Shown: positions 7,772 to 30,641, numbered from the stretch's first letter. The stretch is 41,542 bases of DNA from Candidatus Aenigmatarchaeota archaeon (GCA_043824495.1 JBDRSV010000029.1:1-41542), one strand, 5' to 3'. Program-made: numbers and translations. Notes: generated from the sequence alone by a model not told the origin.

Positions 7772-7936
7772 TTATTTATTCGATGCTTTCACAATAGCCA
7801 TTGCAATGAAGGCAAATGCTATTGCAAGGAAAATAGATACATCCCATCTACCGAATAACGGACCAATGGCGAATCCCAAGAAGAAAAACCCTACGAAAGC
7901 TAAGCCTTCGATATCTTTACTTTTGTTTTTACTAAT
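7772..7936 (-). CDS. Small two-TM membrane protein with no ATG/GTG/TTG start (ATT start or decayed)
   Basis: 54 sense codons, ISKNKSKDIEGLAFVGFFFLGFAIGPLFGRWDVSIFLAIAFAFIAMAIVKASNK; in-frame stop just upstream; not in the ORF track. Confidence 0.45.
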   Translation of the reverse strand: MSKNKSKDIEGLAFVGFFFLGFAIGPLFGRWDVSIFLAIAFAFIAMAIVKASNK

Positions 7937-7992
7937 GATTTATTTTTATTTCTATATCTTAAAAGTACTTATATCCCTTTAATTAGACAGAT

Positions 7993-8039
7993 AAAAACCG
8001 AGGTAGGAGTGTGTTTTAAAACCCCACTCCCACACTCGG
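7993..8039 (-). terminator. GC-rich hairpin plus U-tract downstream of the GC-rich ORF
   Basis: Minus strand ccgag-tgtgggagtg...cactcctac-ctcgg followed by ttttt; a second hairpin caggcag...ctgcctg lies at 8049-8074. Confidence 0.7.
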
Positions 8040-8098
8040 CTAGTAATTCAGGCAGGTGTTAGCACATCTGCCTGCTTTACCGCGGAATCCACCGGGGT

Positions 8099-9016
8099 TT
8101 AGCAGCGTAGCATGCCAGTCGACACAGAGGGTGTCGCATCTGTCCACGTCTCGATCGTCGTCTTCGCAGCGCCGTCACAGCTCACCTTCCAGGTAGCTGG
8201 ACCGGCGCGATTCGCGGCACCGTAATTGGAGAACTCGACCACGCTGGCTTTAGGCGGCGCACATGTCGCTTGTGTGGTGGTCGTCTCGGTCATCGTCACG
8301 AAAGGAGAAGCCACGGAATGACTCATAGCCATGTTCGTGCAGTCGTCGCAGGATACGCGGTCATATAGAACCATCGTCGTTTTCGAGTTCGGCTTGATGA
8401 CGTTGTACCTCAGATGTTCACCGGGATCGCCGATGTCGGTTTCGGTCGAGACCTCGGGCCTAACGGTAATATGGCCAATAGCAACGATGGGCAACATGAC
8501 GACGTTGTGAACCTCCCCACAACTTTGCCATTGGCCGCCGCCGCATTCGATCGTCGCCGCATTTGCGTTTCTGTCTTCGCTCGTACATGGATTTGGGAAA
8601 TCGCCCGTGCCCATGTCGTTCGTCACCATACACGCGTTTGCCGGCACATTCTCTTCTGCTGCCCGCATGTCGGTTTCCGTCTTGAACGTGTTGTTCGTCC
8701 GCGGGTTAGGATAACATGTCCATACCGCGCCGTTCTTCACCGTCATCACATTGGTCGCATCCGTGGTCGCCATCTGCGTGTCGGTGTCCTGCCGTACGAG
8801 CCGCTCACCATTCGTCATAGCCAGACCGTTTTGCTCGAACTGGTTGTTCGGTGCACGTGCAGTCTGCCATTCAGTCGCGCTTGAATTCGCAATCTGCGTC
8901 GTGGTGAGGGCTTCCGTGGTCGCCGTATTCATGGTCGTACCGACTGCCAAGACCGGGACAATCAAGATAGCCATAAAGACCGCGATACAGAAGAGTGGGT
9001 GGCGAAGTCTCGCCAT
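8099..9016 (-). CDS. GC-rich, compositionally alien ORF: predicted secreted Thr/Ala/Asn/Cys-rich protein of unknown function (305 aa)
   Basis: Strong SD GAGGAGG shortly before ATG 9016 (MARLRHPLF...); signal-peptide-like N-terminus; 11 Cys; no family recognised; 57-67% GC in two counted lines. Confidence 0.65.
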   Translation of the reverse strand: MARLRHPLFCIAVFMAILIVPVLAVGTTMNTATTEALTTTQIANSSATEWQTARAPNNQFEQNGLAMTNGERLVRQDTDTQMATTDATNVMTVKNGAVWTCYPNPRTNNTFKTETDMRAAEENVPANACMVTNDMGTGDFPNPCTSEDRNANAATIECGGGQWQSCGEVHNVVMLPIVAIGHITVRPEVSTETDIGDPGEHLRYNVIKPNSKTTMVLYDRVSCDDCTNMAMSHSVASPFVTMTETTTTQATCAPPKASVVEFSNYGAANRAGPATWKVSCDGAAKTTIETWTDATPSVSTGMLRC

Positions 9017-9019
9017 GAT

Positions 9020-9410
9020 GGAACCCTCCTCTTTCAAACATCGGTGAAATAGGGGCGCTGGAAGAAACGTCCTTGTTGTCTGTTGCGCCAGTTGGGACTT
9101 GTGGGATTAGCCAATCCCCGTAAGGTACAACTCTTTCCTTACTCGTGAGCTAAGCTTACTCCTTTCGTTCCTTGGATGAGGGTTTACTTGCGCTAGACAC
9201 GCAAATCTTCACTATTTCGAACAGAAGTCAGAACAAGTTGATATGGGATTTGAAGAATCGACCGCACTTGATCTACATTCAAGAAAACGCGTTATTGTCT
9301 TGCGTTTTCAGTTGCAGATGCTCATTCGAGATGTGTAGGATTAAGTGATTTTGCAAATAACCCATATGAAAACAAATTGTTTGAAATTAGTGAAAATGAT
9401 AAATCATATT
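9020..9410 (-). promoter_or_regulatory. Long, potentially structured 5' leader of the GC-rich ORF
   Basis: Hairpins gaaaacgc/gcgttttc (9283-9309), ttgcg/cgcaa (9188-9204), gggatt/aatccc (9103-9118), ggcgc/gcgcc (9054-9089); TATA-like tttaaata on the minus strand near 9433-9441. Confidence 0.45.
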
Positions 9411-9562
9411 ACTATATAATTTGGTTAAAATGTATTTAAACTTGTCAGATTATTATTTTTTTCTTAATTTTTTCTCAAAAATGCTCAAAACTGTCCAAAA
9501 ATTAGGTTTTTAAGCTAAATACTAATAGATTTTTAGGAAGCTCTTAGAAGCACCTATAATCT

Positions 9563-30605: not shown

Positions 30606-30641
30606 TTCTACTAGATATATATTTTGATATATCTAATAGAA
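30606..30641. other. dif-like tyrosine-recombinase core site (15-bp arms, 6-bp spacer)
   Basis: ttctactagatatat-attttg-atatatctaatagaa; arms are 14/15 inverted complements. Confidence 0.72.

Follow-up and report, generated by a model that had tools for sequence, protein, structure and literature searches.

How does a short GC-rich segment with a single gene come to stand between ordinary host genes of an AT-rich archaeon, and what kind of unit is it? The question is raised by positions 7969-9445 of a 41,542-nucleotide (nt) contig of Candidatus Aenigmatarchaeota archaeon (GCA_043824495.1, JBDRSV010000029.1:1-41542), which was analysed as a whole and is hereafter called the window. It belongs to a fragmented metagenome-assembled genome (MAG) of 29 contigs and 1.01 Mb (GC content 0.362, 80% complete). 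The host genes on either side of the segment code for an HPP-family membrane protein and a DinB polymerase, and its own gene codes for an orphan protein of 305 amino acids (aa). We conclude that the unit is probably a single-gene member of a set of about 19 foreign gene cassettes in this genome, each ending in a hairpin followed by a box derived from the end of an IS6-family insertion sequence (IS).

A first-pass annotation of the window had described a GC- and CpG-rich island with heavy use of ACG, GCG, CCG and CGC codons, and both descriptions hold on measurement. The GC content lies between 0.28 and 0.41 throughout the window, with 8001-9000 (0.56) as the sole exception. At a resolution of 100 nt it rises from about 0.32 to 0.52-0.62 at around position 7998 and decays between 9150 and 9335. 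The island has a GC content of 0.538 and a CpG observed/expected ratio of 1.28 (against 0.343 and 0.46 for the remainder of the window), and just 0.2% of equal-sized segments in the 1.01-Mb genome are as GC-rich. The four codons are used 79, 52, 20 and 13 times per 1000 in the open reading frame (ORF), against 4, 2, 3 and 2 times in neighbouring genes; CG-containing codons make up 19% of the ORF (against 1.9% in five neighbouring genes).

The change to AT-rich host DNA takes place at a conserved 27-nt box (7969..7997, minus strand), of which the consensus on the gene strand is TTTATATTGTCTAATTAAAGGGATATA and to which the local copy conforms at 20 of 20 core positions. Position 7993, originally taken as the start of the unit, falls inside this box. 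A GC-rich hairpin (7999..8040, minus strand) directly precedes the box in gene orientation, its 3' arm entering the T-run with which the box opens, and a second hairpin (8050..8075, minus strand) lies between the stop codon and the first. The fold of 7960-8100 reaches -54 kcal/mol (z = -5.3, with none of 200 shuffles as good), which confirms the twin 3' hairpins and U-tract noted at first reading; hairpin 7999-8040 and the T-run would together form a terminator-like arrangement. The statement that no terminal repeat lies nearby proved wrong: the box, which closes 18 other islands as well, is a relic of an IS6-type terminal repeat. An unannotated hydrophobic ORF of 35 aa (MGFAIGPLFGRWDVSIFLAIAFAFIAMAIVKASNK, window 7772-7879, minus strand) stands between box and HPP-family gene and is co-directional with both.

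The other islands were found by BLAST of the 150 nt downstream of the ORF against the genome, followed by a pattern search. The genome holds many further GC-rich blocks with a CpG observed/expected ratio near 1, and the pattern search gives 19 copies of the box, one per island edge (the studied island and 18 others); none was seen apart from an island in this genome. On one side of each copy the DNA is AT-rich (GC 0.29-0.40), against 0.8-9.4 kb of GC-richer DNA on the opposite side, which ends in a sharp fall to host composition. Read in gene orientation, all 19 show a variable GC-rich hairpin and then TTT(A/G)TATTGTCTAATTAAAGGGATATA. The hairpin abuts the box in 19 of 19 islands, although the hairpins are all different and have no sequence in common. 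ORFs of at least 70 aa are nearly all directed towards the box, the studied one included. The cargo of the sister islands comprises a bacterial-type N-methyl pilin, an EamA transporter, an acyl-CoA dehydrogenase and a 3-hydroxyacyl-CoA dehydrogenase, and at 106-115 kb of contig C24 several units stand head to tail. We rejected the box as a general promoter of the next host gene: the neighbour is co-directional in 10 of the 19 cases and convergent in 7, and no ORF of at least 90 aa was seen in the other 2.

In two sister islands box and promoter lie together between direct repeats (322 nt from the 3' end of an integrase gene, and a 23-nt intergenic word), which hints that whole cassettes, box included, can move. 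In the former (C24:46122-49573) the cassette box is preceded, at a distance of 50 nt, by the end of the gene for a 407-aa tyrosine recombinase that has a Zn ribbon at its C-terminus. A copy of the last 322 nt of this gene, 93% identical, stands just past the promoter end of the cassette, a layout such as might follow the Campbell-type insertion of a circle with box, cargo and promoter on it. In the latter a 22-23-nt direct repeat (AGAAGATTTATATTGGTTTTAAGA-like; C5:65043-65064 and 68715-68737) surrounds a 3.5-kb cassette, at a distance of about 45 nt from the box on one side and about 70 nt from the promoter on the other, and may be a target duplication or an att core. A further box-delimited island of 3.6 kb (C24:111233-114817; GC about 0.50) holds no ORF above about 120 aa and matches nothing in Rfam; a decayed cassette and a large non-coding unit are both possible. 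Within the window, a dif-like 15-6-15 inverted repeat (30606-30641) lies beside a recombinase pair. Its arms (ATATATCTAATAGAA) loosely resemble the ATATTGTCTAATTAAA part of the box, a weak likeness between two AT-rich sequences that may be due to chance.

The box is also present in related genomes. Allowing at most two mismatches, we found it in 17 of the 47 family genomes (Aenigmatarchaeota where the records are named) and in 14 of 27 genera, against 0 for the reversed control. Hairpin and GC-richer DNA follow again in these relatives, and sometimes two boxes stand back to back. An exact-pattern scan over 185,579 species genomes returned 66 stretches, a number close to the chance expectation for such a pattern. 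One set of these consists of Aenigmatarchaeota MAGs, often with several contigs each, in the hairpin arrangement; another comes from Methanoperedens, LFW-280 archaea, Woesearchaeota, Pacearchaeota and other archaea and has a different box context; the remainder are single matches in assorted bacteria, consistent with chance. The viral contigs of IMG/VR yielded no box.

The archaea outside the family point to the origin of the box. Here the 20-mer makes up the ends of repeated elements, and the conservation lies on the opposite side of the box, ending at ...GACAATATC. A Zn-ribbon gene either has its start some 44 nt inside the box or stops some 50 nt short of it; at 0.55-1 kb there is a partner repeat in inverted orientation. 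In the copy from Woesearchaeota the Zn-ribbon ORF matches positions 1-52 of the IS6 transposase model, and the next ORF matches rve_3/DDE_Tnp_IS240 and positions 122-201 of the IS6 model. One copy with DDE_Tnp_IS240/IS6 remnants also has 15-nt inverted ends. Since Zn-ribbon and IS6/IS240 matches lie inside the boxed element, the box is the terminal repeat of a Zn-ribbon IS6-family element; judged from these sequence matches, the cassettes of our genome thus carry the old end of such an insertion sequence. Past the word GACAAT, the flank begins at 3 nt in the IS copies and the hairpin at 5-9 nt in the cassettes. The element must be multi-copy in one Methanoperedens MAG (SR-VP_26_10_2019_2_100cm_44_46), given that at least nine contigs break about 200 nt inside it, each holding the N-terminal 51-62 residues of one Zn-ribbon protein. 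In a second Methanoperedens MAG it is apparently only about 590 bp long and codes for just a 145-aa DNA-binding protein. Full-length Zn-ribbon IS6-like transposases occur in three genomes of the family, with ends that lack the box type of the present genome.

Of that transposase the genome retains only the DNA-binding front end, in a single copy and with the catalytic domain missing. The genome has one intact gene for a 129-aa protein (C24:108305-108691) with a basic tail, a CxxC...CxxC ribbon and a helix-turn-helix (HTH); neither a second copy nor a remnant of it was found in the genome. The protein matches positions 2-52 of the IS6 transposase model and is 44% identical to an LFW-280 protein (E = 8e-27) and 40% to a Woesearchaeota protein. 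A box-like sequence stands about 25 nt before its ATG; a canonical box follows 18 nt after the stop codon, and then hairpin and island. Orthologues of about 100 aa, with 45-65% identity, are single-copy in 23 of 47 family genomes (16 of 27 genera). Downstream, a box follows within 100 nt at no fewer than 8 of the 14 orthologue loci inspected; upstream, a box-like word is seen at most of them. Overall, the 129-aa protein looks like a domesticated DNA-binding domain rather than part of an active IS. In two relatives, G005 and G043, a long hairpin stands downstream of the Zn-ribbon gene, past the box, with a common stem (AAGGAGGGG/CCCCTCCT) and different loops of about 60 nt, followed by a GC-rich stretch of about 0.5-0.7 kb without clear ORFs. 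A clean cassette replacement between these close relatives was considered and dropped; divergence was seen instead.

The gene of the studied island is the one coding-like ORF that had been proposed, on the minus strand at 9016..8099 (stop codon 8099-8101). Its GC content at the three codon positions is 0.50, 0.52 and 0.68 (the last being GC3), a codon-position periodicity; antisense ORFs of 98-156 aa also occur within the island. The strong Shine-Dalgarno sequence attributed to it is present as GAGGAGG (9025..9031, minus strand), 8 nt upstream of the ATG. The composition count agrees with the protein as first described, with few Lys and Leu (2.3% and 3.6%), many Thr, Ala, Asn and Met (15%, 11%, 7.5% and 4.9%) and 11 Cys, 10 of them after the signal. 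The predicted secretion stands as far as the signal-like N-terminus goes: MARLRH is followed by a 19-residue hydrophobic core and VLA-VG, and residues 1-25 form the sole hydrophobic segment according to hydropathy and composition; export itself is a prediction from these features. On composition and coding signal we show that the cargo is a gene from a GC-rich donor, and its Cys/Thr-rich product is putatively secreted.

The protein is an orphan, as had been claimed. A word-index search among 5.8 billion clusters gave a self match only (in the Logan assembly of SRR26275509), and a full phmmer pass over 1.84 billion representatives likewise returned the protein itself. It has no Pfam family, no usable neighbour in the ESM Atlas and, by tblastn against its own genome, no paralogue. 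AlphaFold2 gave no confident fold (a predicted local distance difference test score of 37), and the model was too poor for a structure search. The island DNA is absent from the 40 relatives searched. A close full-length homologue in a high-GC organism, which would have made the island an ordinary recent transfer, was found in none of the databases searched. Around the orthologous DinB gene in relatives, the GC content ranges from about 0.35 to 0.60 within the family; given this wide spread, GC-rich relatives are possible donors of cassettes to AT-rich ones.

Upstream of the gene lies a long 5' untranslated leader of unique sequence (9017..9400, minus strand; 384 nt), along which the GC content falls from about 0.53 to about 0.2. 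The elaborate multi-hairpin structure of about 390 nt that had been ascribed to it was not borne out: the fold is not significant (z = -1.44, with 11 of 100 shuffles folding equally well), no Rfam family was found for leader or island at the gathering threshold and nothing meaningful at E <= 10, and tRNA scans gave nothing meaningful either. A putative archaeal promoter (9405..9445, minus strand), with TATA-like words tttaaata and ttatatag at 9411-9440, precedes the leader; sequence reading and a consensus scan suggest this assignment. A 5' module is present in 12 of the 19 islands, consisting of a TATA-like element, about 20 nt, a TCATGCTCCACA-like block and then the leader, and a hidden Markov model trained on 11 islands recovered a twelfth from outside the training set. 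On the 3' side, hairpin position and box recur at 18 other islands; the leader is unique.

The join itself appears sound. The island is internal to the 41.5-kb contig, and over 18,863 nt that take in both junctions the Logan assembly of SRR26275509 agrees with it at 100% identity. Since this independent contig is identical across the junctions, the join is not peculiar to one assembler. Overall, the island is real and is a recently imported single gene, coding for a putatively secreted protein without known relatives.

Our explanation of how the unit arose and works is as follows. The cassette would have been joined to, or have travelled with, an IS end in a reaction of the transposase type at the IS tip, in the manner of IS26 translocatable units. 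The archaeal TATA promoter about 390 nt upstream would drive transcription, the cargo would be translated from the GAGGAGG site, and the product would be exported by the Sec pathway. Transcription would end at the hairpin and T-run that overlap the box. The domesticated Zn-ribbon protein may bind the box, and would thereby keep the imported gene insulated or regulated, or else label it for further recombination.

A number of observations weigh against this explanation. The IS240-type DDE domain (PF13610) was not found in the genome (80% complete), and present-day mobility is left without an identified enzyme because no DDE transposase of the IS6-type family was found. Each island has only one solo box, rather than the two flanking IS copies of IS26 arrays. 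At the studied island terminal or flanking repeats are not above chance; neither a target-site duplication (8 bp for the copy-in route) nor a flanking repeat was found, at an upstream boundary that is not defined to the base. Neither an empty site nor a presence/absence polymorphism was found, the DinB neighbours being non-syntenic in relatives, metagenome relatives at most 47% identical and exact-protein look-ups giving one sample only. Because the protein is an orphan, no donor is traceable for the cargo gene. The studied leader falls outside the 5' module common to 12 of the 19 islands: the model does not recover this island, pairwise alignments of its leader with those of other islands are no better than shuffles, and with 7 of 19 islands lacking it the module is not universal. 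Finally, the constant hairpin and the gene orientation need an additional explanation in a simple IS26-type model.

It might alternatively be argued that box and hairpin form a host-encoded module for 3' regulation, made up of a terminator and an operator of the Zn-ribbon/HTH protein, and kept by selection beside imported genes; the genes themselves would have arrived by ordinary illegitimate or homologous recombination without involvement of the box. The Zn-ribbon gene indeed behaves as a regulator might, being single-copy, devoid of a catalytic domain and 45-65% identical across genera. Moreover, a box-like sequence overlaps its own promoter, the T-run of the hairpin terminator opens the box, and the 322-nt and 23-nt repeats enclose box and promoter in two islands, which suggests recombination away from the box. 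Nonetheless, the foreign DNA begins within a few bases of the IS-tip position in 19 of 19 cases, which is hard to obtain by selection alone, and no box was seen apart from an island in the genome. We regard this account as rather unlikely as a replacement for cassette capture, though a purely regulatory box is compatible with the capture model. An integron-like system, in which the variable hairpin is an attC-type site, the box an attI-like docking site and a tyrosine recombinase the enzyme, would account for hairpins that keep structure and not sequence, for their place at the 3' end of every cassette and for the ORFs directed towards them. Archaeal integrons have been published, some in Aenigmatarchaeota (PMC9668308), and seven tyrosine-recombinase matches occur in the genome, one of them ending 50 nt from a box. 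However, the R'' (RYYYAAC) and R' (GTTRRRY) core pair is present in 0 of 19 hairpin-plus-box sites on either strand, and no IntI was found in the genome at its 80% completeness (the best TIGR02249 score is 106 bits against a cut-off of 265). The islands are not stacked at one attI but scattered, and every one of them comes with a box, a promoter and a long leader of its own; the studied unit is solitary between host genes, with a leader of about 390 nt and a separate TATA-like promoter region. Of the recombinase beside the box, 0 of 11 homologues in relatives lie near a box, for which reason a tyrosine recombinase was rejected as the cassette enzyme. An integron-like origin is consequently very improbable.

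The first-pass annotation had held that this was not a typical single-gene transfer. That part stands, given a stereotyped 3' shell common to 18 other islands and found in 14 genera, whereas none of the three options it offered instead is supported. GC-rich islands in AT-rich genomes are often structural RNAs, and a structured non-coding RNA (ncRNA) or RNA-mobile element, with the ORF as a by-product of GC-rich sequence, fits the antisense ORFs of 98-156 aa and the extent of the unit from promoter to terminator, which resembles a retrocopy. Yet no Rfam family is reached even at E = 10, the leader folds within the range of its shuffles, GC3 is enriched in the frame of an ORF that also has a Shine-Dalgarno site and a signal peptide-like start, and the conserved end is a DNA-transposon repeat. 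The sole reverse transcriptase is on another contig (C10:73179-73823, adjoining small GC-rich blocks at C10:71951-72925) and is unrelated to the studied island. Neither an RNA-constrained messenger or ncRNA nor an RNA-mobile element is therefore supported, and we give such an origin a slim chance. Nor is a hypervariable protein supported, for which paralogues, a diversity-generating template repeat and variant copies are all lacking. Lastly, a fragment of a GC-rich organism could have been misjoined into an archaeal contig during assembly or binning, as the abrupt change in composition and the fragmented MAG (29 contigs, 80% complete) might indicate. Such a chimera, which had been named as a refuting case, is not supported: the island is internal to its contig, the Logan assembly is identical over 18.9 kb including both junctions, and the junction bears the lineage-specific box of 18 other junctions and 16 other family genomes. 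Its probability is close to negligible.

The cassettes can be compared with known systems. Like the translocatable units and pseudo-compound arrays of IS26 and the IS6 family (Harmer, Moran and Hall 2014, PMC4196232; PMC7986276), they have unrelated cargo that starts at the tip of an IS6-type repeat, they may stand head to tail (C24:106-115 kb), and the associated protein corresponds to the N-terminal DNA-binding part of an IS6-family transposase. They differ in having a solo 27-nt repeat per cassette rather than a full IS on both sides, no DDE domain found in the genome, no 8-bp duplications seen, a hairpin abutting the repeat, and cargo genes that are nearly all directed towards it. With integron cassettes and clusters of attC sites lacking integron-integrases (CALINs; Ghaly et al. 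2022, PMC9668308) they share accessory, often foreign genes in one orientation, a hairpin-forming site after each gene of which the structure and not the sequence is conserved, and a role as a route for cross-domain gene import. Unlike these, they lack R''/R' cores and IntI, are dispersed, have their own promoter and long leader, and repeat a transposon end as the constant element at every cassette.

Other transposon systems offer partial likenesses. In one-ended transposition of the Tn3 family and in ISCR/IS91 capture, the mobilised DNA lies inside the end or beside a rolling-circle origin. As there, one end is conserved, the other is variable and the mobilised lengths vary; unlike there, the cargo of the cassettes is found beyond the IS tip, and neither an HUH nor a Tn3-type enzyme turned up. 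Truncated transposase proteins of the IS1 InsA type bind IS ends. The 129-aa protein resembles InsA as a Zn-finger/HTH front of a transposase without the catalytic part, and its likely site overlaps both its own promoter and the IS end. It differs in being a conserved single-copy chromosomal gene (16 of 27 genera), with sites that adjoin imported genes instead of marking the ends of an active IS. We found no published description of box-delimited cassettes. The paper on archaeal integrons (PMC9668308) does not describe the box, nor does that on gene transfer in Aenigmarchaeota (PMC8407114), in which transposases and insertion sequences go unmentioned; the IS6 review (PMC7986276) covers Zn-finger IS6 transposases and archaeal members, but no solo-end cassettes.

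DPANN archaea, with their tiny genomes, rely on other cells, and little is understood of the ways in which they take up and tame foreign genes, bacterial ones among them. Here every imported block in one genome is bounded by the same 27 bases, traceable to an IS6-type end of which the DNA-binding protein has long been kept. A more far-reaching reading, which we put forward tentatively and consider doubtful as it stands, is that a dead IS6 element has become, in Aenigmatarchaeota, a platform dedicated to gene import. The old end would be recognised by the domesticated Zn-ribbon/HTH protein, and foreign units, including bacterial ones, would be docked by their terminator hairpin and then insulated or controlled, with 7969-9445 of the window as one such unit carrying a novel, putatively secreted protein. 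With one protein, one site and defined junctions, the arrangement makes cross-domain gene capture open to concrete test. The studied cassette adds a putatively secreted, disulfide-capable protein without relatives, which is a plausible surface or interaction factor for a symbiont.

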